From Pseudobdellovibrionaceae bacterium (GTDB lineage Bacteria; Bdellovibrionota; Bdellovibrionia; Bdellovibrionales; Bdellovibrionaceae), in contig JBIKLL010000048.1 of the NCBI GenBank assembly GCA_044359815.1, positions 1 to 20,743 of the forward strand: 20,743 bases of DNA. Reading direction: 5' to 3'. The translations under genes were made by a program, and so were the position numbers. Below, piece after piece: positions 996 through 20,389 of the stretch. Below the pieces are notes generated by a model, which saw only the letters and a program-made list of their open reading frames with translations, made no database searches and was not told the DNA's origin. Position 1 is the stretch's first letter; each line of letters starts with the position of its first letter.

Positions 996-1339
996 GATTG
1001 GACAAAGGGGACTCGGTCTTCTCGCTGCGTTCGCTTCACGCTCACTGCGCTGCCAGAGCCGGCATCGATCGCTTAAAAATGCATCCAGCATTTTCAGCTT
1101 GCGCCAAACGCTCCTGGGCGCATCACAACGAACATGACATTTAGTCATGTTCGCCGTTTGCACAGTCGCGTCCACCGCAAGCCGCGATCTCTATTCTCGT
1201 CCCGTCTAACCCGGTAAATCTTTTTTACCCCCTAGTTTCCCCACACTTCAAAAACGAGTTCGGAGCGCAAGCGCGAAGCGCTGAGCACCGCTGTCTGAGG
1301 CTTTTGATGTGTGGGGAAACTAGGGGGTAAAAAAGATTT
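996..1339. repeat. Nested palindromic element at the tRNA-Asp 3' flank
   Basis: Perfect 31-bp inverted repeat 1216-1246 / 1309-1339, plus 6 more bp after one mismatch. Perfect 10-bp hairpin 1129-1153 and 7-bp hairpin 1076-1094. Degenerate tRNA 3'-end copies at 996-1015 (direct) and 1194-1215 (inverted). Confidence 0.9.
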
Positions 1340-1415
1340 GGCGGGGTGGACGGGACTCGAACCCGCGGCCTTCCGCGTGACAGGCGGACGTTATAACCAA
1401 CTTAACTACCACCCC
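1339..1415 (-). tRNA. tRNA-Asp (GTC), CCA encoded
   Basis: Reverse complement folds as GGGGTGG-TA-GTTA-AGTTGGTTA-TAAC-G-TCCGC-CT[GTC]AC-GCGGA-AGGCC-GCGGG-TTCGAGT-CCCGT-CCACCCC-G-CCA; 77 nt; G discriminator. Confidence 0.98.
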
Positions 1416-5533: not shown

Positions 5534-6322
5534 CTAAAGGTTTTTAAAATCCCAAAGGCTTTGATCCATCATTTGTGATTGATGGATATTTCCCAAAGCA
5601 CCCAGCATTGAAAATTTAATATCAGGAATGTCCTTAGAAAGCTTTGTTAACAATGCTTTCACCTGCTGACGCTTCATCCCGTCCTGTGAACCACACAGAT
5701 TGCATGGGATCACTGGGAACTGCCACTGTGACAACAGCTCCTTGATTTCGTCTTCAAATACCAAACACAGGGGCCTGATCACCACATTGCGCCCATCGTC
5801 TGATTTCAGCTTTGGTGGCATGGATGCCGTTTTGCCTGTAAAAAACTGATTCATCATCAGTGTTTCAATCATATCATCGGCGTGATGACCCAAGGCCATT
5901 TTGTTAAAGCCATTGTTAGCCGCATAATCATATAAAATCCCTCGGCGCAGTCTTGAACACAGCGAACAATAAACACCGTCTGTGACTTTTTCTTTCACGA
6001 TTGAATAAGTATCTTTTGATAAAATCGTCAGCTTCACACCCAGCGACTGCACCCAGTTCTGAAAATCCCTGGGATCAAATCCCGGATGCCCCTGATCAAG
6101 CATCACGGCCTCAAGCTCATAATTATAGGGAGCTCTTTTTTGAATCTCGGTCAAAAGAGCCAATAAAATGCTAGAGTCTTTGCCGCCCGAACAACAAACA
6201 ACCACTCTGTCGCCTTCGCTGATTAAATTAAATTTCGCTATGGCTTCCACAATTTTTTTGCGGATTTTTATGGCCACATTGGTTTCAGTCAGAACTTCTG
6301 CTTTTGATCTTACCAGTTCCAT
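5534..6322 (-). CDS. ttcA: tRNA 2-thiocytidine(32) synthetase
   Basis: PP-loop SGGKDS; two CxxC motifs (CSLCSRLRRG, PCNLCGSQ); LGHHADD; MPPKL. Confidence 0.93.
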   Translation of the reverse strand: MELVRSKAEVLTETNVAIKIRKKIVEAIAKFNLISEGDRVVVCCSGGKDSSILLALLTEIQKRAPYNYELEAVMLDQGHPGFDPRDFQNWVQSLGVKLTILSKDTYSIVKEKVTDGVYCSLCSRLRRGILYDYAANNGFNKMALGHHADDMIETLMMNQFFTGKTASMPPKLKSDDGRNVVIRPLCLVFEDEIKELLSQWQFPVIPCNLCGSQDGMKRQQVKALLTKLSKDIPDIKFSMLGALGNIHQSQMMDQSLWDFKNL

Positions 6323-6744
6323 TAAATTTCCTCTTTGATATAGGCCGTGACTTTAAATTCGACGTGTATGGGGGTTGGCAATGCCACCACCTGCACGGTT
6401 GTTCGAGTGGCCATGATGTCTTTAAAATATTTCTCGTAGACTTTATTAAAAGCTGCAAAATCGTTTTTCATATCGGTTAAAAATACTTGCACATCAACTA
6501 TGTGATTTAAACCGTATCCAGCTTCAGCTAAAATATTTTTAACATTTTCAATCACGCTTTCAGTTTCAACCGTCACATCATAACTGATCACCTGCCCCTG
6601 ATCATTAATCTGAACCCCGGGTATTTGTGTTGTGTTTGGTTTTCTGGGACCGACACCGGATAAAAACATAAAATCACCAGCGATCCTGGCATGGGGATAA
6701 GCCCCCACAGGTTTTGGTGCTTTAACCGAATTGATCGAAATCAT
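6322..6744 (-). CDS. RidA/YjgF family protein, probable 2-aminomuconate deaminase (AmnD-like)
   Basis: PVGAYPHA, FLSGVGPR, conserved Arg in ATRTTV, LPTPIHVE; operon context with AmnABC-like genes. Confidence 0.85.
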   Translation of the reverse strand: MISINSVKAPKPVGAYPHARIAGDFMFLSGVGPRKPNTTQIPGVQINDQGQVISYDVTVETESVIENVKNILAEAGYGLNHIVDVQVFLTDMKNDFAAFNKVYEKYFKDIMATRTTVQVVALPTPIHVEFKVTAYIKEEI

Positions 6745-7816
6745 TTTGATTCTCCTTCAGCATATACCATCTGTCATGGTCTGGATCCCAGTCGTCCCAG
6801 GATTTGATTTTTCCCAGATCATTTAAATACTTTGCTGGAACGATTCCTGGAACCAAAAAAGCTTTTTGCCGTCTGAGCGGGTAAGGATTTCTAAGCTCAA
6901 AACCCAAAACTCCTAAAATCCCGCGGGCCACATACCATGTAGCCTGAGGATTCCAACCGTGAGCAATTTTAATCACCACACCTAATCCGTCTTTGTAATC
7001 AGGGTGATCAATGGCAAGCCCCAACAAACCGTCAGCGCCTTCTTTGGCAATCACCCTGCCCTGGCAAGATTTCATCACAGTGGTGTCCAGTCTGTTAAAT
7101 CCGCCAACCAAATCAGGATGTTTGATCATGCTTTCCCAAATCCAATCCTTGTCCTTGTCCCTGGCAATCCCCGCATAGCAAAGGGCTAATTCATTCACTG
7201 TCATCGACAATGTTGGCAGCCCATCACCATCACGGGCAATTCTGAGCGGCTTCCAATCAGACCCCAAATATTTCTGCACAATTTTTAAATAATTTTTGTA
7301 AACTTCATGATTGGGCATTGTGTAGCCTGTTCTGGACCAACCCAACAACCGACAGCCCAACAATATCGCTGCATGATGACCGCTAGAATTATTGTACCAA
7401 CGACGTGGCCGCCTGACCTGCCTGCCAAACTGCACCAGTGGTAAATCCAGCGGTGTCTGCATTAATCCCCATTCGCTTTCGTTCAATAAACTCTGCGCAG
7501 CTTCGATGTGTTCAGCAGATCCATTGTGCGAACTAACTGATATCGCTTTTTGCTTCCAGTCTGTTTGATCTTTTAAAACTTCAGCAAAAACTTTCATGTA
7601 CAAAAGCTTCAGCATACTGCGGCCATAGCACAAAACATTTCCACCAAACGAATGTATCAATTGGCTTCCGCTGTACCAGGCAATGGCTCCGTGAATGGTG
7701 TTTTCGCTCACACCATTTCGGCGGTAATCCACCAAGGGTTCCCATTCAACATCACGGCCGGTTGGGATGTTTGGCAATGTTTCGCCAAACACTGATTCAG
7801 GATAAATCCGGCTCAT
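6722..7816 (-). CDS. Class 3 (Rhizobium etli-type, asparaginase II family) asparaginase-fold hydrolase, non-canonical
   Basis: RRNGVSE..H.G N-terminal motif, RSxxK (RSMLK), SSHNG, NNSSGHH (cf. NCSGKH), DGDG (cf. DGC), AKEGADG. Confidence 0.8.
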   Translation of the reverse strand: MSRIYPESVFGETLPNIPTGRDVEWEPLVDYRRNGVSENTIHGAIAWYSGSQLIHSFGGNVLCYGRSMLKLLYMKVFAEVLKDQTDWKQKAISVSSHNGSAEHIEAAQSLLNESEWGLMQTPLDLPLVQFGRQVRRPRRWYNNSSGHHAAILLGCRLLGWSRTGYTMPNHEVYKNYLKIVQKYLGSDWKPLRIARDGDGLPTLSMTVNELALCYAGIARDKDKDWIWESMIKHPDLVGGFNRLDTTVMKSCQGRVIAKEGADGLLGLAIDHPDYKDGLGVVIKIAHGWNPQATWYVARGILGVLGFELRNPYPLRRQKAFLVPGIVPAKYLNDLGKIKSWDDWDPDHDRWYMLKENQNDFDQFG

Positions 7817-8775
7817 TGGTTTTCTTCGCTTTCAAAATCTTCTCCAGGGTTCAGACTTTGGCTGGACATTGATACGCTTTCTAAAACATTGCGTTCACCC
7901 AAATAAGTTTCAGTATTGTCCTCGTCAAATTCTAAATCTCTGGCAGCTTTCGCAGCCGGAGTCAGCCCCACCACGGCACAGCCCACACCGTAGATTGGTT
8001 CATAGGCAAAAACTTTGCCTTCAAATCTGTTGTGTGCACCCATAACGGCTGACAACCACCAAAGCGGTTTAAAATTATTCACTTTTTTAACACGAGCTTC
8101 TTTGTGAATCTGCCGACTTAATTGGGCCAGATCTTCCAACCTGCCCATTTCCAAAAGCTCGATCATTTTTAAATTCCATTCTTGATCTTTTAGCGAATGG
8201 ATTTTGTCATCCTTGGGATCAATCAGTGTCTGATGCAGTCTGTTTGACAATGATGACACCACTATGGCTACAGCTTTTTTGTTTTGAGCTTTCAGAGTCT
8301 CGTTGACAGCTTTTCCTAAAACCACAGTTTCCGCGCGGTCAGAATAAATATTGCTGGAAACAATGGATGCCTTAAATTTGTTACCTGGATTAATTAATTT
8401 CAATGCGACCACAGATCCTGTATCAACGGGGAAGGCTTCATAATCTGTGACCTTGATCATTAAACCTTTTTGTTTGCCGATTTCTGCAAACTGATTGGCA
8501 AACTGTTTATCAAACTGAAAATGATATTTAATGCTTCCCAGTTCGTGAAATTCCTCGTCCACATGGGTCCATTTTAAATTTTCTTTGGCCTGAACCTGAT
8601 GACCCAATATGGATGGCCACATGGTCGAATAAATCACAATCAGATCAGGATTGATGGCTTCGATTTCGGCTCGGACAGCATCAAAGGCTTCACGAATTTT
8701 TTTGTAACCTTGATTTGCATTAGGTGACAGCAACGGCTGAACCAAACCTGGCAAAATAAATCCCTTAACTATCAT
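7813..8775 (-). CDS. amnA: 2-aminophenol 1,6-dioxygenase alpha (non-catalytic) subunit-like, with acidic C-terminal extension
   Basis: Motifs typical of AmnA/CnbCa: LPG, IYSTxW, HVDE, FPVDTG, SNIY, IDPxDDKI, KEARV, YxPxYG. Confidence 0.8.
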   Translation of the reverse strand: MIVKGFILPGLVQPLLSPNANQGYKKIREAFDAVRAEIEAINPDLIVIYSTMWPSILGHQVQAKENLKWTHVDEEFHELGSIKYHFQFDKQFANQFAEIGKQKGLMIKVTDYEAFPVDTGSVVALKLINPGNKFKASIVSSNIYSDRAETVVLGKAVNETLKAQNKKAVAIVVSSLSNRLHQTLIDPKDDKIHSLKDQEWNLKMIELLEMGRLEDLAQLSRQIHKEARVKKVNNFKPLWWLSAVMGAHNRFEGKVFAYEPIYGVGCAVVGLTPAAKAARDLEFDEDNTETYLGERNVLESVSMSSQSLNPGEDFESEENQ

Positions 8776-9662
8776 ACAGCCCCCGCATCGGGTCTAAATT
8801 CAACCACAGCATTGCCGGTTCCAATCACCGTTCCATATCCGTAAACCCGGGCAGGATTTTTAGGAAATCCCAATGATGCCAGCATCCAGGTCAGGGCACC
8901 GCAATCAGTTTCACTGACGGCTTGTTCGGTAAAATCTGGCATGATGTTTATGATTTCCTTGGTCTTACCTTCTTTCATAAGCTTAATCATTTTCATGTCC
9001 CACAAATACTGATTGTGATTATAAATATGCTCATGGCTCATGTCTTCTGGCAGTGGCGGTTCTTTGGTAAAATGCCTGTGCGATAACGAATTACTGGCTA
9101 ACAACAAAACTTTTTTTCCGGATTCAGCAATGGCTGCCACTGTGGCCTTGGCCAAAGCAATCATTTCTTCTTGCATGACATCCACATTAAAATATTGAGC
9201 TGCCGAATGACTGGACAAAGCCACAATGGGTTTATCCCATTTGGGATTAACCATGTGACATGAAATTATGGTTCCATAATCCACACGAAAATCCGGATTG
9301 GTCATCGGCTTCATAACCAGATTTTCTTTCAGCCCATGGCTGACAATTTTCTGCGCCAAATCCACGTCGACCTTCAGATCATAATGAAACCGAAACAAAT
9401 GCGGAAAAATCGGATCAACAGAAATTGATTTCATCTGTGGCACAGACAAAACATGGGTTCCCACATAGGTTCGCCAATGCGGGGATAGCACCACGATCAC
9501 ATCGTAATCTAATTTATCAAGACTTTCCCTCATATCTTGATAAGCCCATCGCAGAACCTCCCAGCCGCATTCGCTTTTGGGTTCGTTTTGCTGGGGATTT
9601 TCCGCGTACACTAAATGCGGAGGATGGGGTGCCAAACACCCGGCTACAATTTTGCCTTTCAT
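8772..9662 (-). CDS. amnB: 2-aminophenol 1,6-dioxygenase beta (catalytic) subunit-like, LigB-type extradiol dioxygenase
   Basis: LAPHPPHLVYAENPQQNEP (His13), SPHW (His62), FRVDYG, SNSLSH, AVSE and YGTVIGTGNAV all match AmnB/CnbCb as I recall them. Confidence 0.9.
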   Translation of the reverse strand: MKGKIVAGCLAPHPPHLVYAENPQQNEPKSECGWEVLRWAYQDMRESLDKLDYDVIVVLSPHWRTYVGTHVLSVPQMKSISVDPIFPHLFRFHYDLKVDVDLAQKIVSHGLKENLVMKPMTNPDFRVDYGTIISCHMVNPKWDKPIVALSSHSAAQYFNVDVMQEEMIALAKATVAAIAESGKKVLLLASNSLSHRHFTKEPPLPEDMSHEHIYNHNQYLWDMKMIKLMKEGKTKEIINIMPDFTEQAVSETDCGALTWMLASLGFPKNPARVYGYGTVIGTGNAVVEFRPDAGAV

Positions 9663-11125
9663 GATGGGTCCTTTATGCAGATTGTTTTTATGTTTGTATA
9701 AAAATCCCTGGAATATTTGCCGCCTTCACGTCCCAGCCCTGAAGCTTTCATTCCACCGAAGGGCACACGTAAATCACGCATCATCCAACCATTCACCCAG
9801 ACTGTGCCCGCCTGAACAGCCTTCGCAACCCGCAGGGCTTTTTGCTGATCCAAGCTCCAAACCGTAGCTGATAATCCATAAATCACGTCATTGGCCAAGG
9901 CCACGGCCTCGGCTTCAGTTTCAAATTCTGCTATGCTGACAACGGGTCCAAAAATTTCCTCCTGCATGCAGGCTGAATTTTGTTTTAACCCCGTGATGAC
10001 TGTGGGATTTAAAAAATACCCATGGGCTAAATCCCCCGACAGTTTTGGACTGTCCCCGCCTGTCAGTATCGTTGCGCCTTCTTGTTTTGCTTTTTCAATG
10101 TAGGATTTCACTTTGTTCAGATGTTGTTCGCTGACCAAGGGACCCATAAAGGTTTCAAGGTTTTTAGGATCACCGACTTTTAATTTTTTAACCTCTTCAA
10201 CAAAGGCTGAAATAAATTTCTGCGCCAAAGGCTTTTGCACATAGATTCTGGATCCACACAAACAAATCTCGCCTTGATTCAGAAAGCTTGATCTGATCGA
10301 GATGCTAAGAGCTTTTTCAAAATCACAGTCTGCAAAAATAATATTTGGATTCTTACCACCCAGCTCCAGACTGAGTCGCTTTAATAAACTGGAGGCCTCC
10401 CAAGCAATAGTGGTTCCAGTAGCCGTGCCCCCAGTGAATGAAATCACGGGGACGTCTTTGTTTTTGATCAACGCTTGTCCTGCTTGAAAGCCTTTACCGT
10501 AAACAATGTTGATCACACCTTTTGGAAAATTAATTTTTTGCACAATTTCAGCCAAGGCATTGGCCGAATGTGAAGTGAATTCTGATGGCTTGCAAACCAC
10601 AGCGTTGCCATAGGCAATTGCTGGTGCGATTTTCCAAGTCAGCAAATACAGTGGCAGATTCCATGGTGATATCAAACCCGCCACACCAACTGGTTCATGG
10701 ACGATAATATTATCAGCCCCAAAATCAGATTTTATTTTGAACTGTTCTGGATGCAGATTTTCTGGCTGCAAAATTTCTGCTGCAAAAAATCTAAAATTAT
10801 CCACCACCCGATTCATATCCATTTTTAGCGCAAGCTCGACGGGCTTACCCTGGTCTTCGCTTTCGATTTCTGCCAGTGCTTGTTTGTGGGCATCAATAGC
10901 ATCGGCCAGTTTCAGCATCCAATCAGATCTTTGCTGGGGACTTAAACTGCGCCAATAATTAAATCCCGATTTGGCTGCATCCACTGCCTTATTTACGTCA
11001 GCTGAAGAGGACAATGGGATCATAGAAATGACCTGGGAATTTGAGGGGTTTTTATTTTCCAGATATTTTTCATTAACTGGGGCTATAAACTCGTTACCGA
11101 TAAAGTTAGCTAATTTTTTAATCAT
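9659..11125 (-). CDS. Aldehyde dehydrogenase, probable 2-aminomuconate 6-semialdehyde dehydrogenase (AmnC/ALDH8A1-like)
   Basis: PWNLPLYLLTWKIAPA, KPSE, SFTGGT, LELGGKNP, catalytic Cys in NQGEICLCGSR, EEIFGPV, RDLRVPFGG. Confidence 0.88.
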   Translation of the reverse strand: MIKKLANFIGNEFIAPVNEKYLENKNPSNSQVISMIPLSSSADVNKAVDAAKSGFNYWRSLSPQQRSDWMLKLADAIDAHKQALAEIESEDQGKPVELALKMDMNRVVDNFRFFAAEILQPENLHPEQFKIKSDFGADNIIVHEPVGVAGLISPWNLPLYLLTWKIAPAIAYGNAVVCKPSEFTSHSANALAEIVQKINFPKGVINIVYGKGFQAGQALIKNKDVPVISFTGGTATGTTIAWEASSLLKRLSLELGGKNPNIIFADCDFEKALSISIRSSFLNQGEICLCGSRIYVQKPLAQKFISAFVEEVKKLKVGDPKNLETFMGPLVSEQHLNKVKSYIEKAKQEGATILTGGDSPKLSGDLAHGYFLNPTVITGLKQNSACMQEEIFGPVVSIAEFETEAEAVALANDVIYGLSATVWSLDQQKALRVAKAVQAGTVWVNGWMMRDLRVPFGGMKASGLGREGGKYSRDFYTNIKTICIKDPS

Positions 11126-11252
11126 GCAAAATCAGTATGATTTAAGCCCCTGACAGTCAAATAAGTTTTGCGCCCAGTTGATTTGATTTTATTCATGCAA
11201 TGTCTTGGGATTTTTGTTAAACCTGAAGCCTCAAAACAAAGGATCTAATCAC

Positions 11253-12569
11253 ATGAATTCGCATCTAACATCTGTCTTTAAAACTGACACAGTAACCAAA
11301 ATAAAAACCAAATTGTTCAATGCTTTGTCATTTCAGTATATCCCGCATCCTAAAGTTCTATTATTCATTGCGATTCCATTTATATTATGCCAATGCAAAT
11401 CCCCTGAAAAGCAGGTTCAAACCGCAGTCCCAAAACAGAAATTCTATACCCTGAAATCCCCCGCGACTATTGGAACCACCGATGTGGGACAGCAACTGTT
11501 TCTGGGCGGATTTTCCAGTTTGGTATACAAAGGCAAAACCGAAAGTGGAGAATTTGAATTTTACACCATCACTGACCGTGGCCCCAATGCCTACACCATG
11601 GCTGATTCAAAAGTTAGCGACATCGCAAAACCTTTTTTGCTACCGGCTTTCAATCCAGAAATCATTATCATCAGAACCGATTCTAAAAACATGAACCTCG
11701 AGATTGTTTCCAGAATCCCACTAAAATACGACGACACAAAATTGATGACAGGACTTCCTAACATCGAAAAAACCAAAGCCACTGCGGGTGACGAATACCC
11801 CGTGAACAATCATGGTAAGCCTTTGGAATTTGATTTAATGGGCATTGATTCCGAGGGTCTGACCCTGGATCCAGAAGGAAATTTTTGGGTCTGTGATGAA
11901 TACCGTCCTTCCATTTTGAAATTCAGCAAGGATGGAGTGTTAATTAAAAGATTTGTGCCTGCAAATTTCAAAGGTTCAGATCCCAAGCTCTCAAAAACTT
12001 TGCCCGCTATTTATGGCGAACGCCAACTGAACCGGGGTTTTGAGGGCCTGACCTACAGAAATGGCAAAATTCTGGCCGTGATGCAAAGTCCTTTGAACAT
12101 CAAAAAGGATAAAAATAAAAACGTCGTCAGGATTTTAGAATTTGATCTGAAAACCGAAAAACCCTCAGGGGATTATATGATTTTGCTTGCCGACAAACAG
12201 ATTGATAAAATCGGCGACATCAATGTTTTTAACGATGATTTGATTTATATTTTGCAAAACGGACAGGTCGGCGAAAACGGCTATCACAGGATTTTCAGAA
12301 TCAGACAAATGACGGCAATTAAGGGCCAACCCGAAAAATCCAATTTGGATAAATTAACCGCCAGTTACCAAGCCCCCATCGAGATTTTGGATCTGAAGGC
12401 TGCTGGTTTTGACATGGAAAAAACCGAGGGTTTGGCACCCATTGACGCAAACACTATGGCCGTTATTAACGACAATGATTTTGGCTTAAATGGGGGCATA
12501 GACCGCCAAAAAGGCACTGTCCCCATGGCTCCAGATCGATCTACGGTGCTAGCCATCATTAGTTTGTAA
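11253..12569 (+). CDS. Esterase-like/phytase-like beta-propeller protein, probable lipoprotein
   Basis: TDRGPN, DSEG, DEYRP, NRGFEG, EKTEG and NDNDFG motifs. Hydrophobic stretch followed by Cys (ILCQC). ATG 11253 has an AAGGA RBS and is preferred over TTG 11205. Confidence 0.85.
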   Translation: MNSHLTSVFKTDTVTKIKTKLFNALSFQYIPHPKVLLFIAIPFILCQCKSPEKQVQTAVPKQKFYTLKSPATIGTTDVGQQLFLGGFSSLVYKGKTESGEFEFYTITDRGPNAYTMADSKVSDIAKPFLLPAFNPEIIIIRTDSKNMNLEIVSRIPLKYDDTKLMTGLPNIEKTKATAGDEYPVNNHGKPLEFDLMGIDSEGLTLDPEGNFWVCDEYRPSILKFSKDGVLIKRFVPANFKGSDPKLSKTLPAIYGERQLNRGFEGLTYRNGKILAVMQSPLNIKKDKNKNVVRILEFDLKTEKPSGDYMILLADKQIDKIGDINVFNDDLIYILQNGQVGENGYHRIFRIRQMTAIKGQPEKSNLDKLTASYQAPIEILDLKAAGFDMEKTEGLAPIDANTMAVINDNDFGLNGGIDRQKGTVPMAPDRSTVLAIISL

Positions 12570-12654
12570 TATTTTCATGTAAAAATCTCTGTCAGTTTCA
12601 AATTTGAACCACCTGCCTTAGAATGCCGTCTGTATGTTTGAATTTGGAGGGAAA

Positions 12655-13065
12655 ATGAAAACATTAATCACGCTAGCAATACTGGCTATGGCTCCTGCCA
12701 CTCATGCCCTGTCGCTTACACCTAAACAGGTCAGACACTGTCATGCAATCGGCGGTCGCGAAATGATCGTATCAAAGACTTTTGGCAAAAAAGGCATTTA
12801 TCAAGTCGCCATCACTGGTGTTGATCAATTTGATTTTGTCAGAATCTCTGAGGACCTAAGAGTCGATACAACCACAGGAACCTTAAGCGGTGTTGCCAAC
12901 AATTCTTCAAAAGAAGTTCCTGAAGGCTCTATCATCCGTTTGGGAATCGAAACCTTGGAAATTCTGGATAAAACCACTGAAAACCCAATCATCCAAATGA
13001 ATGAGCTTCACTGCGAAGACACAACATTTGATGACCCATTCGCTGAAAAACTAACTGATTTTTAA
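12655..13065 (+). CDS. Hypothetical secreted protein
   Basis: GGAGG RBS before ATG 12655; signal peptide ending THA; 2 Cys. Confidence 0.75.
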   Translation: MKTLITLAILAMAPATHALSLTPKQVRHCHAIGGREMIVSKTFGKKGIYQVAITGVDQFDFVRISEDLRVDTTTGTLSGVANNSSKEVPEGSIIRLGIETLEILDKTTENPIIQMNELHCEDTTFDDPFAEKLTDF

Positions 13066-13490
13066 ATTCTTGCTGGCCCCTTTGAATCAGGGGCCTACTA
13101 ATTCTGGAAATATAAATTTTAAAAAATATGCCCTTACCTTGTGTATACTTGCTAACGGCCGCAAGCTCATCTCTCGTTTTGATATTCGGGATAAATCAAT
13201 AATCCCATGACACAATACGAGAGATGAGCTTGCGGCCGTTAGCAAGTATTCAAAAGGTATAGAAACAAAGAAATATTTTAAAAATACAAATTCTGGTTTC
13301 AGAAAACTAAATCAGACTCAGTGATAACTTTCGCTTTTAAATTATGACTCAACACCAGATATGCGGCGATAAATTAACCGTCGCGCTCGCAAATGTATTC
13401 ACAAGGTAAGGAATTTAGGGCCTTATTTTTTAAAATTTGTATTTCCAGAATTAGTTGGCCCTTTTGTCAATGGCGCCAGCCAATTTTAAA
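13061..13490. repeat. Large nested inverted-repeat element filling a convergent intergenic region (MITE-like)
   Basis: Outer arms: 13091-13128 / 13424-13461 (36/38), 13132-13148 / 13395-13411 (16/17), 13061-13090 / 13462-13490 (~21/30). Inner perfect 33-bp inverted repeat 13145-13177 / 13217-13249. Confidence 0.92.
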
Positions 13491-14673
13491 TTAATTCAGG
13501 GGCGACTTTTTCGATAAATAGTCGCATGGAATTTTTAATCCCATCATTATCGTGAATGTTAAAATCAAACCATGCCATCAATCGATCCTGCTGATGATAC
13601 TTTGATTTTATTTTTTCCAAGACCTCAATGGGATTTCCGGCAATGGTGTTTTCAACGGCATCAGCAACCTTTTTAGGATCCAAGGTTCCTTCCATCGCAA
13701 TCCAATAATTGCGCCAAGCTTTTTCAGCTTGAGCTTTAGCTTTTGCAGAATCCTTATCAATAAACACCATCAACGTTCTGGGCATATATTCGCGCTTCCA
13801 AGCACCACCTGCGGGATGATAATGCTTTTGCATGAAAGAATGAGTTTGTTCAATAATTTCAGGTGGAGTGATGGACAAATTAAAAACCCCCACTGGCATC
13901 CATTGATTAACGTGTTTTTGCACAGCTGGATCATGACTGCCCAAAGTCAGATTTAATAACTGCATCGGGGCTTCAAAGGGTATCACTCCTACCTTCGGAA
14001 ACTGCCAGTGACTGGCAAGTCTGATTGAATCACCGCTATGACCTGATAATTTTAAAGTTTTTTGCCAATCCAAATCCGATCTAAAATCGGCACGTGTGAG
14101 TATCAAAGGACTGACATCAGCTGAAGAAATTTGTTCCCCAGACAAAATCCTAACAAAAATTTCTGAAGCCTGTTGAAAATATTTATTTTTCAGGACGGCC
14201 CAGCAGGATTTTTCAAAATCATTTTTTGGATAAAATCCGTAGGGAATGTTTGAAAACGGAAATCTGCCAGCCGCAAATCCCAACTGCAAAACCCTTGATT
14301 CAGAATCATTCATCCCGTGCAGGGTCAAAAATGTTTTGATCGCTTCGGCATGGGCAATGGGACCACCATTGCAGATGATGTTTCTGATTGCAGAACCCAC
14401 TTGAATTTTTGAAGTGCATTTGTGAACCAAATGCGCCAATTGCAAAATATCTGTGTTGAGTCCGATCTCGCCCAAAAAATGTGGAACCACAGCATCAGGT
14501 GTTTGCTTTTGCGTTTGACAGGACAAATGTGTTTCAGCAACCCACGCAGTTTGAAATCCCAATTGATCAGCAAACTTTACCTGATCAAAAAAATTCTGAA
14601 ACATCACCCTTTCGCTGGGTTTGTAGCCATCGACTTCTGTTTGGCAGATAGATAAAAAAATATCAAACTTCAT
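13486..14673 (-). CDS. Luciferase-like (LLM class) flavin-dependent monooxygenase
   Basis: MKFDIFL start, ADQLGFQTAWVAETH, LQLGFAAG, IAGNPIEVLEKI, SMRLFIEKVAP: the typical LLM TIM-barrel pattern. Confidence 0.85.
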   Translation of the reverse strand: MKFDIFLSICQTEVDGYKPSERVMFQNFFDQVKFADQLGFQTAWVAETHLSCQTQKQTPDAVVPHFLGEIGLNTDILQLAHLVHKCTSKIQVGSAIRNIICNGGPIAHAEAIKTFLTLHGMNDSESRVLQLGFAAGRFPFSNIPYGFYPKNDFEKSCWAVLKNKYFQQASEIFVRILSGEQISSADVSPLILTRADFRSDLDWQKTLKLSGHSGDSIRLASHWQFPKVGVIPFEAPMQLLNLTLGSHDPAVQKHVNQWMPVGVFNLSITPPEIIEQTHSFMQKHYHPAGGAWKREYMPRTLMVFIDKDSAKAKAQAEKAWRNYWIAMEGTLDPKKVADAVENTIAGNPIEVLEKIKSKYHQQDRLMAWFDFNIHDNDGIKNSMRLFIEKVAPELI

Positions 14674-15419
14674 AGCGAAGGAGTTCGTCCACCATCAACG
14701 GTTAGACTGATTCCAGTGACATAACTAGCTAGCGGACTGGCTAAATATAAAGCCGCATTGGCCAGATCTGAGGGCTCTGCAAATCTGTGCATAGGAATGC
14801 TTTCAAGCCACATCTCGGTAACTTGGTCTTCGGTCATTTTTAGTCTTTCAGCTACGGATTTTCTAAGAGTCTCTAGCCGTTCTGTTTTTGTAAACCCAGG
14901 CAACAGATTATTTACTGTGATTCCAAATTCACCCAGCTCGTTTGCCAAGGTCTTGGACCAGCTGTTCATGGCACCCCTGATGGTATTTGAAACCCCCAAA
15001 TTAGGAATGGGTGTTTTAACACTGGTGGAAAGCACATTAATTATTCTGCCGTACTGTTCAGATTTCATTGAAGGCACAAAGTTTTTTGCCAGCAACTGTG
15101 ACGCCAAAACATGCTGTGTATAGGCCGATGTCATGGATCTGGTGTCGGCATCCAACAAAGATCCCCCCTTGGGCCCACCGCTGTTGTTAACCAAAATATG
15201 AACCTTTTGGTATTTAGCCAAAATTTCTCGCGAAGCGCGCTCGACCAAATTCAGATCACCCAGGTCACAGGTAAAATTATCAAATTTATTATTGTGTGTC
15301 CTGGATACTGAAACCACTTGGGCTCCAGCGGCCTTGAAAGATTCTGCAATGGCTGCACCTATGCCCTTAGAAGCACCACAGACTACTGCGATTTTGTCCT
15401 TTAAGCTCAGTTCAATCAT
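14670..15419 (-). CDS. SDR family oxidoreductase (atypical active site)
   Basis: CGASKGIG Rossmann motif, NNSGGP, SNTIRG in place of YxxxK, ITVNNLLPG, VDGG. Confidence 0.9.
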   Translation of the reverse strand: MIELSLKDKIAVVCGASKGIGAAIAESFKAAGAQVVSVSRTHNNKFDNFTCDLGDLNLVERASREILAKYQKVHILVNNSGGPKGGSLLDADTRSMTSAYTQHVLASQLLAKNFVPSMKSEQYGRIINVLSTSVKTPIPNLGVSNTIRGAMNSWSKTLANELGEFGITVNNLLPGFTKTERLETLRKSVAERLKMTEDQVTEMWLESIPMHRFAEPSDLANAALYLASPLASYVTGISLTVDGGRTPSL

Positions 15420-15422
15420 AGT

Positions 15423-15554
15423 TTACTCAGGCAAAATTTTGGCTTCTTGTTCAGGTGTAAATTCAATAGTGATAGGTTTGGTCTTTTTGGGACCGATCAA
15501 ATATACTCCTAATACAAAAGCCAATGTGATAGCCAATCCATAAATCAATTTCAT
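15423..15554 (-). CDS. Small 43-aa single-pass membrane protein (not in ORF track)
   Basis: Translates to MKLIYGLAITLAFVLGVYLIGPKKTKPITIEFTPEQEAKILPE*. Its stop is 3 nt before the SDR start, and GGAG lies upstream. Confidence 0.65.
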   Translation of the reverse strand: MKLIYGLAITLAFVLGVYLIGPKKTKPITIEFTPEQEAKILPE

Positions 15555-15616: not shown

Positions 15617-16159
15617 ATGCCCCCACGCATGAGCAAATTGTTTTGGATAGACCTAGAAATGACAGGCCTGGATGTGACCAAAGAAGTCATAATCGAAACC
15701 GCAGCGCTGGTCACTGACTACAGTTTTAATATTTTGGATAAATACGAAACTGTGGTGAACCAACCGCAAAACTATATCGACAATATGGATCAATGGAACA
15801 AACAACACCACACGGATTCGGGTTTGGTTTCAAAAATCCCTTACGGAAAAACCCCTGACCAGGTGGAAGAAGATTTATTGAATCTGATCAAAAAGCACTG
15901 GCCTAAGATTGAAAAAAAAGAAGACAAACCCATCCTGGCTGGAAACTCGATTCAACAAGACAGATTGTTTATCGATAAATATTGGACCAAGCTTGGGGCA
16001 ACTTTGCATTACCGAATGCTGGATGTGAGTTCTTGGAAAATAATTTTTAATAATAAATTTAATAAAAAATACGACAAAAAAAATGCCCACAGAGCCCTGG
16101 ATGACGTTGTCGAAAGCATCAATGAACTAAAGTTTTACCTGGGCCACATCAAGAATTAA
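15617..16159 (+). CDS. orn: Oligoribonuclease
   Basis: DEDDh motifs WIDLEMTGLD, AGNSIQQDRLF, LHYRMLDVSS, HRALDD..ESI.EL. The true start may be ATG 15629. Confidence 0.95.
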   Translation: MPPRMSKLFWIDLEMTGLDVTKEVIIETAALVTDYSFNILDKYETVVNQPQNYIDNMDQWNKQHHTDSGLVSKIPYGKTPDQVEEDLLNLIKKHWPKIEKKEDKPILAGNSIQQDRLFIDKYWTKLGATLHYRMLDVSSWKIIFNNKFNKKYDKKNAHRALDDVVESINELKFYLGHIKN

Positions 16160-17013
16160 ATTTTTAGTGATTTCAGTGACGAATGTAAATCAAACCTCAA
16201 CCCCAAGCTAGCTGCCAGATCGGTGTTCATATACCAATCAGATTCAATACCATAGGGGGATTGGTCGCGGTCCAGATGGCTTGCAGACAAACGCAGGGCT
16301 TTACCTATTCTGCCTTCAATAAAATCCATCAATTCCTTTAAACTGATTACCGGATTGGCAGCTAAATTTATGGGACCTGTAAAATCCGACTGGGCTAAAA
16401 AGTGGATGCCAAGGGCGGCATCTGCCGAATGGATCAAACTGAGTTTTGCATTGATGTTTGGAAAAAATATTTCCCTTTGCTGCTTGATCCTGTCCACATG
16501 AAATTGAAACCGTCCCGTGTAATCATCAGGTCCAAAAACCATGGGCAAGCGCACTGCCGTCACTGGCATTGAGGCTTGCGCAAAAAACACAGCCTCGCAC
16601 TGCCTTTTGGCTTCGCCATAGTCACTGGTTTTGCTGACTTGAGGCTGAAAACTGTATCCCACAGGATTAAAAACTGACTCTGACAAATTTGGCCCGGAAT
16701 CTTTGTAGACTGATTGAGTGCTAGTAAAAATATATTTTTTAGTGCGATTTTTAAATATTTCCACAGCGGCCAAGGCTTCTGAAGCTTCAAAACAAACTTG
16801 GTCAATCACGACATCAAATTCATGACCCTTTAAACTGCCAGCTAATTGTTTGGCATTGCTGCGATCACATTTAATCCTGAATATTTTTTTATCATTCAAA
16901 CCATCAGCCAGATTCTGCCGGTTCAGCAGTGTGACGTCGTGACCTGATTGCAAAAACAATTCAGCAATTCTTTTACCGAAAAACCGATTGCCACCAATAA
17001 TCAAAATATTCAT
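16156..17013 (-). CDS. NAD-dependent epimerase/dehydratase family protein (extended/atypical SDR)
   Basis: ILIIGGNRFFG, FTSTQSVY, YGEAK (YxxxK). Its stop overlaps the orn stop in TTAA. Confidence 0.88.
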   Translation of the reverse strand: MNILIIGGNRFFGKRIAELFLQSGHDVTLLNRQNLADGLNDKKIFRIKCDRSNAKQLAGSLKGHEFDVVIDQVCFEASEALAAVEIFKNRTKKYIFTSTQSVYKDSGPNLSESVFNPVGYSFQPQVSKTSDYGEAKRQCEAVFFAQASMPVTAVRLPMVFGPDDYTGRFQFHVDRIKQQREIFFPNINAKLSLIHSADAALGIHFLAQSDFTGPINLAANPVISLKELMDFIEGRIGKALRLSASHLDRDQSPYGIESDWYMNTDLAASLGLRFDLHSSLKSLKI

Positions 17014-17331
17014 TTATCTGGGTGGCGGGATGCAAACAATGGTGCTGGCAGAATTGCGAGCTTTAGAATTTTTTAGGGTCACTGTATTTCCGTGGATTGA
17101 AATGGCCTCAAAGCCCGATGGTTTGTGAGAAATCTTAAGCCTGATGACCTCACCAGTTAGCTCTACCAAGGCCTCACCCGAAAATTCACCCGAATCCATA
17201 GTCAGCTTCCAGACTTCGCCGGTGGAGACTTTTATAATTTCTTTGTAGGTAAATTCCTGCATATCCATCATGCAGTTGGGCTCAACAGGTGCCGCATTTA
17301 TTAATGTCGAAAACAATAAAACTGAAAACAT
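17014..17331 (-). CDS. Hypothetical secreted protein
   Basis: AAGGAG RBS; short signal-like N-terminus; 2 Cys; abuts the next gene with a 0-nt gap. Confidence 0.7.
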   Translation of the reverse strand: MFSVLLFSTLINAAPVEPNCMMDMQEFTYKEIIKVSTGEVWKLTMDSGEFSGEALVELTGEVIRLKISHKPSGFEAISIHGNTVTLKNSKARNSASTIVCIPPPR

Positions 17332-17393
17332 AAATCACTCCTTGATTTAAAGGTTTAAAAACCTTTGCTTTATTTCGTAATAAACACTTTAGC

Positions 17394-17425
17394 AAAAAAA
17401 AAGGGGGGTTTTGCAACCCCCCTTT
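17394..17425 (-). terminator. Rho-independent terminator of ahcY
   Basis: Stem GGGGGGTT/AACCCCCC with a GCAA tetraloop on the minus strand, followed by U9; 6 nt after the ahcY stop. Confidence 0.9.
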
Positions 17426-17431
17426 GAAGTC

Positions 17432-18832
17432 TTAGTATCTGTAATGCTCTGGTTTGTAAGGACCATTCACATCAAGGCCCAAATATTTAGATTGCTTGCC
17501 TGAAAGCTTTGTCAGCTTCACACCCAGCTTATCTAAATGCAATTCCGCCACTTTTTCGTCCAAATGTTTTGGCAATCTGTAAACGTTGATTTCCTCGTAT
17601 TTGTCACGGTTAGTGAAAAGCTCTAACTGAGCCAACACTTGGTTGGTAAACGAGTTAGACATTACAAAGCTTGGATGCCCAGTCGCACAACCCAAATTCA
17701 CCAAACGGCCTTTTGCCAAAACAATGATGCTGGTTCCGTCTTTAAGAATATGCAAATCAACCTGAGGTTTGATTTCGCGCATTTTTGAGTTTTTATTTAA
17801 CCAAGCCATATCGATTTCGATATCAAAATGCCCGATATTGCAAACAATCACATTGTCTTTCATTTTGGTGAAATGTTTTTCAGTGATGATGTCACAGCAA
17901 CCTGTGGCCGTTACAAAAATATCGGCATGGGGTGCGGCCTCTTCCATCGTTGTGACTTCAAAACCTTCCATTGCTGCTTGCAACGCACAGATAGGATCAA
18001 TCTCGGTAACCAACACTCGGGCACCGTAGGCACGCAGTGAATGGGCTGAACCTTTACCAACGTCTCCGTAACCAGCTACTACAACGGTCTTACCAGCTAA
18101 CATCACATCAGTGGCTCGCTTGATGCCGTCAGCCAATGATTCACGGCAACCGTACAGATTATCAAATTTTGATTTAGTCACTGAATCGTTAATATTAATT
18201 GCTGGTACTTTCAGTTTTCCTTTTTCCAAAAGCTTCATCAGATTGTGAACACCTGTTGTGGTTTCTTCTGATAAACCAATAATCTTTTTCAATTCTTTGG
18301 CAAAACGCTCTTCGTGCATCATGTTTGTTAAATCGCCGCCGTCATCCAAGATCAGATTGTAGCCATCAGCTCCCCAACCTTCGATTGTTTGTTCGATGCA
18401 CCAGTTAAACTCCTCTTCAGTTTGACCTTTCCAGGCAAACACGGGGATTCCTGCAGCAGCCATGGCAACCGCAGCGTGATCTTGAGTTGAAAAGATATTG
18501 CAAGAAGACCATCTGATTTTAGCACCCAAATAAATCAGAGTTTCAATCAACACAGCCGTTTGAATGGTCATGTGCAGACAGCCTGTGATTTTAGCACCTT
18601 TAAGTGGTTGCTGTTTGCCGTATTCTTGGCGAAGAGCCATCAATCCTGGCATTTCCTTTTCGGCGATCATGATTTCTTCACGACCCCATCTGGCCAGATC
18701 TTTAAACACAGAGGGATTTTCCATGGCCTCTTTGCACACACGATAGTCTGTGCCCCAAGCGTTGAATTTGCTTTTTGCTCCTGCAACAGGAGTTTTCTTA
18801 GATTTTTCTTTCGTAGATGTTTGCAATGCCAT
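17432..18832 (-). CDS. ahcY: Adenosylhomocysteinase (SAH hydrolase)
   Basis: [68 protein letters not shown] end. Start is ATG 18832 (AAAGG RBS) or 18892. Confidence 0.97.
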
Positions 18833-18916
18833 AGTTAAACCTTTCGTTTTGCTTGATGATTTATTTTTCAAAGCTTTTGATTTTAATTTCATTTTGTTAA
18901 GCCCAAATTTTTTAGC

Positions 18917-19675
18917 CTAATCAACGGTCAGAATTTCGCACCCAGTGTCTGTTATTAAAACAGTGTGTTCAAACTGCGCAGACCATTTTTTATCAGCTGT
19001 TGTATAGTATTTAATCGAGGATCCAGGAATGTCCAATTCTTTTATTGCTGCCACTCCTTGGTTAACCATGGGCTCGACAGTAATGCACTGCCATGGAACC
19101 AAAACTTCACCCCGGCCCTTTTTCCCAAAGGAAGGCACAAAGGGGTCGTCATGAAACTTTCTGCCTATTCCATGACCACCAATTTCCTTAACTGTTGTAT
19201 ATCCCCTGCGGGTTACAAATTTATCAATGGCAAAACCGATGTCCCCCGTTGTTGCTCCGGGACGAACCTCAGCTATGCCCTTATCCCTAGCGATTTCTGC
19301 AACCTGCACTAAGTCTTTAATTTCTTCGCTGACGTTTCCAATAAAGAAGGTTGCCGAGGTATCACCAAAAAAGCCGTCTTTTTCACTGGTGATATCCACA
19401 TTTATAATATCCCCCTCTTTCAGGGTTAAATTACCGGGTAATCCGTGACAGACGACTTCGTTAACAGAGGTGCAAATGGTTTTGGGATACCCATTGTAGC
19501 CCAAGCAAGCAGGCCTAAGCTCATTTGATAAGGTGTAGTCATAGACGATTTTATCCAATTCATCAGTAGTGACTCCGGGTTTAACAAATTTTTCGATGTA
19601 CTTCAGAGTTCTGGCCGCCATCATACAGATGTAGCGCATTTTTTGAATTTCGTCTTTTGACAAAGGCTTGATCAT
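18917..19675 (-). CDS. map: Methionine aminopeptidase type I
   Basis: CTSVNEVVCHG, NVDIT, GDTS, GHGIG..FH, TVEPM, AQFEHT. Confidence 0.96.
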   Translation of the reverse strand: MIKPLSKDEIQKMRYICMMAARTLKYIEKFVKPGVTTDELDKIVYDYTLSNELRPACLGYNGYPKTICTSVNEVVCHGLPGNLTLKEGDIINVDITSEKDGFFGDTSATFFIGNVSEEIKDLVQVAEIARDKGIAEVRPGATTGDIGFAIDKFVTRRGYTTVKEIGGHGIGRKFHDDPFVPSFGKKGRGEVLVPWQCITVEPMVNQGVAAIKELDIPGSSIKYYTTADKKWSAQFEHTVLITDTGCEILTVD

Positions 19676-19786
19676 ATTTTGATCCTTACAAGTCTGGCAT
19701 ATGAGATCTTGTTTCTAAAAAGTCTAGCAAATAGCAAATCTGGTACTTTAAGTCCGGTTCTAATAAATATTGTACCTTACAAAATA

Positions 19787-19821
19787 AAAAAAGCCCGAAC
19801 AAAGATTGAACGGGCTTTTTT
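19787..19821. terminator. Intrinsic terminator (bidirectional type) after the SWIB gene
   Basis: AAAAAAGCCCG-N13-CGGGCTTTTTT, 21 nt past the SWIB gene stop. Confidence 0.75.
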
Positions 19822-19842
19822 AAAATTCTACTAAATCAAATA

Positions 19843-20184
19843 CTATTTCAAGTGTTTGCTAACGATTTTAGTCATTTCAAACATAGAAACAGTAGATTTT
19901 CCAAACAACGCTCTTAATTTTTCGTCAGCGTTGATGTTTCTTCTGTTTTTAGCATCTTGAAGCTTGTTCTTTTTGATGTAGTCCCAAAGTTTTTTAACAA
20001 CTTGAGTTCTAGGGATAGAACCAGCGCCGATAACTGCTGCTAGTGTTGAACTAGGCGTTAAAGGTTTCATAAACGCTGCGTTTGGCTTTCTTTTGCCAGC
20101 AGCTTTTTTAGTAGCGGCTTTTTTAGTAGTCGCTTTCTTAGCGGTTTTTTTAGTCGCTTTTTTTGCTTTCTTTTTTGTAGCCAT
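19843..20184 (-). CDS. SWIB/MDM2-domain protein with histone H1-like Lys/Ala-rich N-terminal tail
   Basis: GGAGG RBS before ATG 20184 (113 aa); KKA(T/A) repeats; SWIB motifs LAAVIG, RTQVVKKLWDYIKKNKLQD, NINADEKL, VSMFEMTK. Confidence 0.92.
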   Translation of the reverse strand: MATKKKAKKATKKTAKKATTKKAATKKAAGKRKPNAAFMKPLTPSSTLAAVIGAGSIPRTQVVKKLWDYIKKNKLQDAKNRRNINADEKLRALFGKSTVSMFEMTKIVSKHLK

Positions 20185-20389
20185 GTATTCCTCCACATGC
20201 AATTTGTTGTTGGTTACTGTACTTAATTGTACTTTAGTGACAAGACTTCCCCTCTCACAATCTTTATTATGCAACTTAGTGTATCGACTTCTGTCTGTTT
20301 GTCCAAAAAAAAATTCATTTTTTTATACTTGAGTCAAAAAATCGATTTTCTCGACTGAAAAACTGCGTTTTCCCTCCGAAAAGACATGT

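Follow-up and report, generated by a model that had tools for sequence, protein, structure and literature searches.

Gene content and conservation of the cluster

The stretch of DNA analyzed here (the window; 20,743 nucleotides, contig JBIKLL010000048.1 of assembly GCA_044359815.1) is contig C38 of a metagenome-assembled genome (MAG) of a Pseudobdellovibrionaceae bacterium (2.95 Mb in 125 contigs, 91% complete). Its minus strand carries genes for an atypical short-chain dehydrogenase/reductase (SDR), a luciferase-like flavin monooxygenase (LLM), an aldehyde dehydrogenase (ALDH), AmnB-like and AmnA-like dioxygenase subunits, an Asparaginase_II-like serine hydrolase (AsnII) and a RidA-family protein (Table 1); together these most likely represent a previously undescribed bacterial route of tryptophan degradation in which two enzymes stand in place of kynureninase. 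The gene identities, coordinates and overlaps given in a preliminary description of this DNA were all reproduced with the open reading frame (ORF) list and family scans. According to the ORF coordinates and the sequence, 4-nt ATGA overlaps lie at 9659-9662, 8772-8775, 7813-7816 and 14670-14673, the overlap between RidA and AsnII is 23 nt (6722-6744), and ttcA and RidA meet at a 1-nt TAATG junction (6322). SDR-LLM is split in the window from the ALDH-to-ttcA genes by two plus-strand genes and a dispersed repeat; in relatives the two parts are contiguous. The family scan found no decarboxylase, hydratase or aldolase among the window genes, as the preliminary description had said.

A pattern scan derived from the LLM alignment was run against 185,579 species genomes, where at least 599 stretches were matched, at least 554 of them encoding a relative, and the DNA of the best 80 loci was fetched. 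These loci are mostly from Bdellovibrionota, with others from Thermoanaerobaculia, Holophagae and Oligoflexia, one Planctomycetota MAG and one Sericytochromatia MAG. Many are short contigs, and the gene counts are lower bounds: ALDH is found in 60, SDR in 58, AsnII in 53, AmnB in 50, AmnA in 46 and RidA in 26 of the 80, kynurenine formamidase (KynB) in 18 and tryptophan 2,3-dioxygenase (TDO) in 11, whereas ttcA is adjacent in three, the phytase-like gene in one and the ORF at 12634-13065 in none. On these counts SDR, LLM, ALDH, AmnB, AmnA, AsnII and RidA form one unit to which ttcA and the inserted genes are incidental; these last three were rejected as pathway members, ttcA having been listed in the preliminary description with the translationally coupled genes. 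The recurrence of the seven-gene set in several phyla is far beyond chance, and the co-occurrence of the LLM, SDR and asparaginase-like genes with amnAB in other genomes, on which the preliminary description depended, is seen both in these loci and in those of close relatives. Among 16 loci inspected around a hydrolase homologue in related genomes, five have the uninterrupted order SDR-LLM-ALDH-AmnB-AmnA-AsnII-RidA (G020, G012, G003, G040, G009), three have SDR-LLM-AsnII-ALDH-AmnB-AmnA (G036, G030, G035) and three have just LLM beside AsnII (G027, G022, G034). All-against-all ORF clustering of the 51 longer loci turned up no pathway gene that recurs apart from those already listed; the other recurrent genes were housekeeping ones in synteny (orn, ahcY, map and SWIB). 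At least 2,919 LLM and 1,635 hydrolase homologues were counted, and the LLM family is also present in Thermoplasmatota (Atlas look-up).

Other features of the window concern its assembly and surroundings. The repeat at 13100-13440 has a core hairpin of about 30 nt and looks like an element of the MITE (miniature inverted-repeat transposable element) or REP (repetitive extragenic palindromic) type that breaks the assembly: it gives 326 blastn high-scoring segment pairs at 89 places on 61 of the 125 contigs, 29 contigs have a copy no more than 300 nt from an end, and its read depth in three lake-water DNA runs is 81-211x, compared with about 3-7x elsewhere. These runs yielded short contigs only, none covering the whole stretch, and the join from ALDH to LLM is neither confirmed nor refuted by them. 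About 3.6 kb is likewise inserted at the LLM/ALDH junction of locus L054. Many relatives keep the housekeeping block in synteny with the cluster: orn accompanies it in 30 of the 80 loci, and the 51 longer ones include 13 with ahcY, 12 with map and eight with SWIB. Promoter and terminator scans of the window did no better than chance (25 found and 22.8 expected, and 8 found and 11.2 expected, respectively).

Table 1. Features of the window, with the family or structure match on which each assignment is based.
Feature	Position	Strand	Basis
tRNA-Asp (GTC)	1339-1415	-	Sole RNA gene found in window (Rfam)
ttcA	5534-6322	-	NF007972, 344 bits, above cut-off
RidA-family deaminase, proposed AmnD-like 2-aminomuconate deaminase	6322-6744	-	PF01042, 94 bits
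Asparaginase_II-like (AsnII) class-3-asparaginase-fold serine hydrolase, 364 aa	6722-7816	-	PF06089, 154 bits
AmnA-like alpha subunit, 320 aa	7813-8775	-	PF02900; 8ihg_B E 3.5e-38
AmnB-like catalytic beta subunit, 296 aa	8772-9662	-	PF02900; 3vsg_B E 1.9e-105
ALDH, proposed AmnC-like 2-aminomuconate-6-semialdehyde dehydrogenase	9659-11125	-	PF00171, 552 bits
Phytase-like esterase gene	11205-12569	+	PF13449, 135 bits
143-aa ORF, no family	12634-13065	+	ORF list
Dispersed intergenic repeat	about 13100-13440		MITE/REP-type in appearance
Luciferase-like flavin monooxygenase (LLM), divergent, 395 aa	13486-14673	-	PF00296, 36.7 bits, N-terminus only
Atypical SDR, 249 aa	14670-15419	-	PF13561, 140 bits
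Housekeeping block orn / epimerase-like / ahcY / map / SWIB-domain protein	15617-20274		

Linkage to tryptophan genes and exclusivity with kynureninase

In relatives the cluster is joined directly to the genes that make kynurenine. A single operon of G030 reads TDO-SDR-LLM-AsnII-ALDH-AmnB-AmnA::RidA (a fusion)-KynB by Pfam annotation; G034 has LLM-AsnII-KynB-TDO, G038 has KynB-LLM divergent from TDO, and G022 has KynB-LLM beside AsnII. Loci from Holophagae and Acidobacteria (L123, L090) have the operon TDO-SDR-LLM-ALDH-RidA-KynB, a Bdellovibrionota locus (L118) has TDO-LLM-ALDH-RidA-KynB without SDR, and in the genomes of all three AmnB-AmnA-AsnII forms a second operon elsewhere. In the source genome of the window TDO (330 bits) adjoins KynB (TIGR03035, 199 bits) on contig C27. 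This TDO is of a long form (359 aa, one continuous match); other carriers have a short two-piece TDO. The cluster very probably belongs to tryptophan/kynurenine catabolism, and the suggestion in the preliminary description of a natural route that offers an alternative for tryptophan is borne out by the presence of TDO and KynB in the same operons of relatives and by carriers that have no kynureninase.

The distribution of the genes points the same way. Among 41 relatives (including the source genome) it is nested: TDO is found in 33, LLM in 18, all with TDO, and AmnB in 14, all of them LLM carriers. Kynureninase is above the curated cut-off in eight of the 41, none of which has LLM (0/18 carriers), and the eight relatives without TDO have neither. 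In a phylum sample of 201 evenly drawn genomes, each at least 90% complete, LLM occurs in 34, kynureninase in 45 and both in none; TDO is present in 143, including all 79 genomes with either gene, and lies no more than 10 kb from LLM on the same contig in 16 of the 34 carriers. For LLM and kynureninase in the 143 TDO-positive genomes Fisher's test gives p = 3.4e-7, uncorrected for kinship. Both states are found inside single families (LLM and kynureninase in 10 and 12 of 28 genomes of f18, and in 7 and 3 of 13 of f6), which argues for repeated replacement. In the source genome no kynureninase match exceeds 44 bits and the Amidohydro_2 (ACMSD) family was not found; a search for the 3-HAO (HAAO) family was blank, and its control was likewise without any match. 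LLM and hydrolase are present, and AmnB not found, in G022, G027, G034 and G044.

To our knowledge all described aerobic bacterial kynurenine routes use kynureninase, and tryptophan catabolism is regarded as well mapped. No paper connecting kynurenine with the formation of 2-aminophenol, with an LLM or with a hydrolase of the asparaginase type was found in the literature covered, which did not extend to subscription journals. According to PMC4646340 (2015), kynA is the most predator-specific gene, obligate predators are without the rest of the pathway, and "another, unknown pathway" is among the options offered for their kynA.

Enzymes of the cluster and a proposed route

AmnB-like protein is matched to 3vsg_B (CnbCb, the beta subunit of 2-amino-5-chlorophenol 1,6-dioxygenase) over residues 1-289 without gaps (E 1.9e-105) and to 8ihg_A (E 1.1e-101), and His13, His62 and Glu251 of 3vsg_B, which we take to be the iron ligands of CnbCb, are identical in it. 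AmnA-like protein is matched to 8ihg_B, the alpha subunit of 2-aminophenol 1,6-dioxygenase (E 3.5e-38). As adjacent LigB-superfamily genes for a catalytic beta and a non-catalytic alpha subunit, the pair has the features of an AmnAB/CnbCab-type 2-aminophenol 1,6-dioxygenase and is predicted to be one; because AmnB so closely matches characterized 2-aminophenol dioxygenases, an o-aminophenol must be made. The best NCBIfam match of ALDH is 2-hydroxymuconic semialdehyde dehydrogenase (TIGR03216, an equivalog; 534 bits, below the cut-off of 693). RidA, which has 103 bits against TIGR00004 (cut-off 106), has 2-aminomuconate deaminase 6izh as its best PDB match (E 8.6e-25), and its fold family, its nearness to a characterized deaminase and its clustering with AmnAB and ALDH are those expected of a putative AmnD/NbaF-type deaminase. 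In G030 (L020:6195-7664), and also in G035 and G036, AmnA and RidA are fused in a 489-aa protein with LigB and Endoribonuclease L-PSP domains, which supports a physical or functional link between dioxygenase and deaminase.

For the LLM, family searches say little: the Pfam match is limited to residues 1-114, all NCBIfam scores stay below cut-off (TIGR04027, 19 bits), a sequence search of the PDB gave no match below E 0.01 (profile search best E 0.0016), and its at least 2,919 homologues carry generic names only. Its AlphaFold2 (AF2) model, built with a 45-sequence alignment, has the TIM-barrel LLM fold (pLDDT 91.3, pTM 0.89) and gives 160 Foldseek matches in the PDB at E ≤ 0.001, headed by RslO1 (7bip), 2i7g, an Agrobacterium LLM, bacterial luciferases and the flavin "OX" domain of a PKS-NRPS (polyketide synthase-nonribosomal peptide synthetase), with 3,6-diketocamphane monooxygenase (4uwm), a type II Baeyer-Villiger enzyme, at rank 16. 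LLM adjoins TDO/KynB in relatives and never occurs together with kynureninase in either genome set. On these grounds we propose that it may be a kynurenine Baeyer-Villiger oxygenase. The ortho-hydroxylation of an arylamine such as anthranilate, which the preliminary description had suggested for it, is not supported: no anthranilate source is evident without kynureninase.

The AF2 model of the hydrolase (pLDDT 87.7) has strong Foldseek matches only to ReAV and ReAIV (ReAV: E 4e-17, TM 0.69-0.72), and the protein is 74-84% identical across relatives, which are free-living lake, soil and marine MAGs. According to PMC12292245, the essential residues of ReAV are Arg47, Ser48, Lys51, Ser80 and Lys263, of which Arg47 holds the alpha-carboxylate of the substrate L-Asn, and its zinc ligands are Cys135, Lys138 and Cys189. 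In an alignment of 72 sequences (71 cluster-associated ones and the window protein) the equivalents of R47, S48, K51, S80 and K263, and of His139 and Asp187, occur in 70-71, with gaps in fragments making up the remainder. The zinc-site positions are Ser144, His147 and Asp198 in the window protein, one of 38 in which the zinc cysteines are replaced by Ser/Asp; Cys/Cys is kept in 32 of the 70 sequences that cover these columns. An Arg-rich loop is conserved at residues 121-140. Retention of the catalytic Ser-Lys tandems and of the alpha-carboxylate-binding Arg fits a beta-aspartyl substrate, and genomic context argues for one bulkier than L-asparagine. Since the LLM-AsnII pair occurs without AmnAB in G022, G027 and G034, this substrate should be the LLM product. 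The formamidase activity contemplated for the hydrolase in the preliminary description is disfavored by the dedicated KynB, which is present and co-clustered. One orthologue (G043:C1:841131-842201) contains an in-frame TAG within the match; a sequencing error, pseudogenization or recoding could account for it.

The route that we propose would begin with L-kynurenine made by TDO and the formamidase of contig C27. As kynurenine offers no cleavable bond to a serine amidohydrolase, the LLM has to create one. With reduced flavin and O2, it would carry out Baeyer-Villiger oxygenation at the aryl ketone of kynurenine, where the 2-aminophenyl group, being electron-rich, would migrate. The product would be the beta-(2-aminophenyl) ester of L-aspartate, and a rearrangement of this to the anilide N4-(2-hydroxyphenyl)-L-asparagine may follow. 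Ester and anilide are both asparagine analogues, so that an asparaginase fold with an Arg for the alpha-carboxylate could cleave the beta-aspartyl compound to L-aspartate and 2-aminophenol, the substrate of AmnAB. The ring would then be opened by AmnAB to 2-aminomuconate semialdehyde, which ALDH would oxidize to 2-aminomuconate and RidA would deaminate to 4-oxalocrotonate (2-oxohex-3-enedioate); finally the SDR would reduce 4-oxalocrotonate, perhaps to 2-oxoadipate, and so stand in for the decarboxylase/hydratase branch. Baeyer-Villiger oxygenation followed by beta-aspartyl hydrolysis, as a tryptophan route independent of kynureninase, is the reading we consider probable, for it would explain the exclusivity with kynureninase, the confinement of AmnB to LLM carriers, the genomes with LLM and hydrolase only, and the family to which the hydrolase belongs.

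The SDR keeps the cofactor motif G-A-S-x-G-I-G and also N-N-S-G; in 37 of 37 aligned SDRs (36 orthologues and the window protein) S144-N145-x-x-R148 stands where Y-x-x-x-K is expected. A classical amnEFGH-type lower pathway, whose presence elsewhere in the genome together with a known feeder would have counted against the preliminary description, was not found in the source genome by searches for DmpG_comm and DmpH/DmpE-like genes (AcetDehyd-dimer was not searched): the DmpG_comm aldolase has no match there, in any of the 41 relatives or in five further carriers, and no DmpH/DmpE-like ORF of the source genome reaches E ≤ 1e-3. Elsewhere the SDR alternates with such genes. All five SDR-less loci with TDO directly upstream of LLM (L064, L084, L086, L117, L118) carry a divergent DmpH/DmpE-like pair. 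One member is best matched by TIGR03220 (2-oxopent-4-enoate hydratase, 273 bits) and the other by TIGR03218 (2-oxo-3-hexenedioate decarboxylase, 207 bits), neither score reaching its cut-off, and not one of the 58 SDR loci has the pair. Of the 201 genomes, 52 have DmpH-like genes: 36 with kynureninase, 15 with LLM and one with neither. The 34 LLM carriers divide into 12 with SDR only, 14 with a DmpH-like gene only, one with both and seven with neither, and in the sole genome with both the SDR-like match is weak (42% identical) and on another contig. A kynureninase genome without DmpH (G082) has the operon TDO-SDR-ALDH-RidA, and in G206 SDR heads ALDH-AmnB-AmnA-AsnII-RidA-TDO with LLM on another contig. 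Because of this alternation, G082 and G206, the SDR is taken as part of an ALDH/RidA module that is an alternative to 4-oxalocrotonate decarboxylation. It probably reduces the ring-fission product (4-oxalocrotonate or 2-aminomuconate) in an NAD(P)H-dependent manner, in keeping with the place after ring fission given to it in the preliminary description; that its product is 2-oxoadipate is conceivable and rather less likely. A role as flavin reductase of the LLM was rejected for the SDR, which stays with ALDH-RidA when LLM is elsewhere (G206) and occurs without LLM (G082). In four kynureninase loci (L041-L044, in G006, G019, G024 and G016) a DmpH-like gene of the 4-oxalocrotonate decarboxylase family adjoins kynureninase.

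A preprint (10.64898/2026.06.05.730449) reports the identification of the animal and fungal enzymes that act after 2-aminomuconate and cites 2-oxohex-3-enedioate as the product of the bacterial deaminase. Overall, then, the tryptophan option and the SDR role put forward in the preliminary description are supported, and its roles for the LLM and the hydrolase are not.

Alternative readings and relation to known systems

The linkage to TDO and KynB and the absence of kynureninase would fit any enzyme acting on kynurenine, including a kynurenine 3-hydroxylase that is not homologous to the known one. In that case AmnAB would cleave 3-hydroxykynurenine or 3-hydroxyanthranilate and the hydrolase would act on the ring-fission product; 3-hydroxykynurenine is itself an o-aminophenol, and LLM enzymes also hydroxylate. 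Such a pathway supplies no amide or ester to a serine amidohydrolase, however, and it leaves unexplained both the occurrence of LLM and hydrolase in genomes without AmnAB (G022, G027, G034) and the conserved Arg for an amino-acid alpha-carboxylate; moreover, the ACMSD-family gene that a carboxylated or acylated fission product calls for was not found in the source genome. We regard it as unlikely. Less likely still is a Baeyer-Villiger reaction with alkyl migration, or an oxidative decarboxylation of kynurenine to an amide, after which the hydrolase would free anthranilate and serine, or 2-aminobenzoylacetate and ammonia, and AmnAB would serve another substrate: the same context evidence (TDO/KynB operons, distribution in the phylum sample) applies and an ester or amide is supplied to the hydrolase, yet neither product is an o-aminophenol, AmnB, with its close match to 2-aminophenol dioxygenases (E 1.9e-105, ungapped over residues 1-289), is confined to LLM carriers and frequently shares an operon with the LLM, and no anthranilate-degrading genes recur in the loci (ORF clustering of the 51 longer ones). 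Very improbable is the degradation of an aryl amide or heterocycle of external origin (N-acyl-aminophenol, benzoxazolinone or phenoxazinone), with the hydrolase unmasking the amine and the tryptophan link reflecting shared regulation or synteny, since, although AmnAB-type genes are known from xenobiotic degraders and N-acyl-aminophenols could in principle be cleaved by the hydrolase, the operons are joined with TDO and KynB in several phyla, the anticorrelation with kynureninase is strict (0/34 and 0/18), the hydrolase keeps a high identity (74-84%) among MAGs of free-living bacteria from lakes, soil and the sea, and nothing points to the detoxification of prey phenoxazinones or benzoxazolinones considered in the preliminary description.

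Several observations nevertheless weigh against the combination of kynurenine oxygenation and beta-aspartyl hydrolysis. The substrates and chemistry of the LLM, hydrolase and SDR are inferred from context and retro-biosynthetic logic. The LLM fold matches are weak (13-18% identity, TM 0.6-0.78), F420-dependent reductases, RutA, MsuD and SsuD rank only slightly lower among them, and no flavin reductase partner was identified, no search having been made for one. G038 and G045 have KynB-LLM with only a distant asparaginase-family gene (29-31% identity), so that the hydrolase is not always needed or is replaced. SDR is missing from the Thermoanaerobaculia loci, and lone SDR orthologues (50-55% identity) in nine genomes of genus g9 with TDO only indicate that it is not strictly tied to the pathway. 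Neither LLM nor kynureninase is found in 64 of the 143 TDO-positive genomes; in genus g9 (e.g., G008:C1) all 14 sampled genomes have TDO without either. Related genomes are not independent and p-values are therefore overstated, and because the genomes examined are MAGs (the source genome being 91% complete) absences in them are to be read as "not found".

If kynurenine oxygenation and beta-aspartyl hydrolysis do operate, they would amount to a new amino-acid reaction, in which a C-C bond is cleaved by oxygen insertion and then hydrolysis with release of aspartate, and would assign functions to two large families now without annotation (the LLM and hydrolase homologues counted above, with at least 554 genome loci). 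Genomes with LLM and hydrolase only would stop at 2-aminophenol and excrete it. 2-Aminophenol oxidizes to phenoxazinones, which are antibiotic. The route would also be a partial explanation for TDO in predators without the remaining pathway (PMC4646340), and would set a bacterial counterpart beside the recently identified steps that follow 2-aminomuconate in animals and fungi (10.64898/2026.06.05.730449). Taken as a whole, a picture in which this is the "unknown pathway" behind the predator TDO (PMC4646340), widespread in Bdellovibrionota, Acidobacteriota, Oligoflexia and marine Thermoplasmatota, is tentative and less likely than not. Its novel activities would be three: a flavin-dependent Baeyer-Villiger oxygenase for kynurenine, a hydrolase of beta-aspartyl-aminophenol that descends from class 3 asparaginases, and a tyrosine-less SDR taking 4-oxalocrotonate or 2-aminomuconate towards 2-oxoadipate by reduction, as in animals.

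The SDR differs from classical SDRs in its catalytic Ser...Tyr-x-x-x-Lys, where Tyr is replaced by Ser144 and Lys by Arg148. The LLM has the TIM-barrel fold in common with LuxAB and with the type II FMN-dependent two-component Baeyer-Villiger monooxygenases (4uwm/5aec), which are among its nearest solved structures, and in the chemistry proposed for it a flavin-peroxide would attack a carbonyl, after which a group would migrate; it is, however, only 13-18% identical to them, is matched by Pfam at the N-terminus only, and would act on an amino-acid aryl ketone. ReAV and ReAIV of Rhizobium etli (PF06089) share with the hydrolase the fold, the Ser48-Lys51 and Ser80-Lys263 tandems, Arg47, His139 and Asp187; the hydrolase is distinguished from them by 21-24% identity, by replacement of the zinc site in the window protein and by its aromatic-pathway context, and the leaving group proposed for it is 2-aminophenol rather than the ammonia of ReAV. 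RutA, which appears among the LLM fold matches, brings to mind the Rut pyrimidine pathway (RutA, an LLM; RutB, an amidohydrolase; RutC, of the RidA family), in which the LLM oxygenase produces a labile acyl compound for the hydrolase to cleave and an enamine is left to the RidA-family protein; this likeness is an analogy, the substrates being unrelated and the hydrolase fold different.

At the level of pathways, the amn (Pseudomonas sp. AP-3), cnb (Comamonas CNB-1) and nbz (P. pseudoalcaligenes/putida) systems share with the window the LigB-type AmnB/AmnA dioxygenase, the semialdehyde dehydrogenase and the RidA-type deaminase. AmnAB-type genes are classically known from such xenobiotic degraders, whereas the window route would be fed by kynurenine through the LLM and hydrolase, and not by nitrobenzene or aminophenol, and its cluster has the atypical SDR where aldolase and DmpH/DmpE-like genes were not found in the source genome. 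With the kynurenine pathway of kynA-kynB-kynU and nbaC-ACMSD the proposed route has in common its start (TDO and formamidase) and the intermediates 2-aminomuconate semialdehyde, 2-aminomuconate and 4-oxalocrotonate, and 51 of the 52 genomes of the 201-genome sample that have DmpH-like genes are kynureninase or LLM genomes. The two differ in that kynureninase is found in none of the LLM carriers (0/18 and 0/34) and the ACMSD family was not found in the source genome; the side chain of kynurenine would leave as aspartate instead of the alanine of the kynureninase route, and the ring as 2-aminophenol instead of anthranilate or 3-hydroxyanthranilate.

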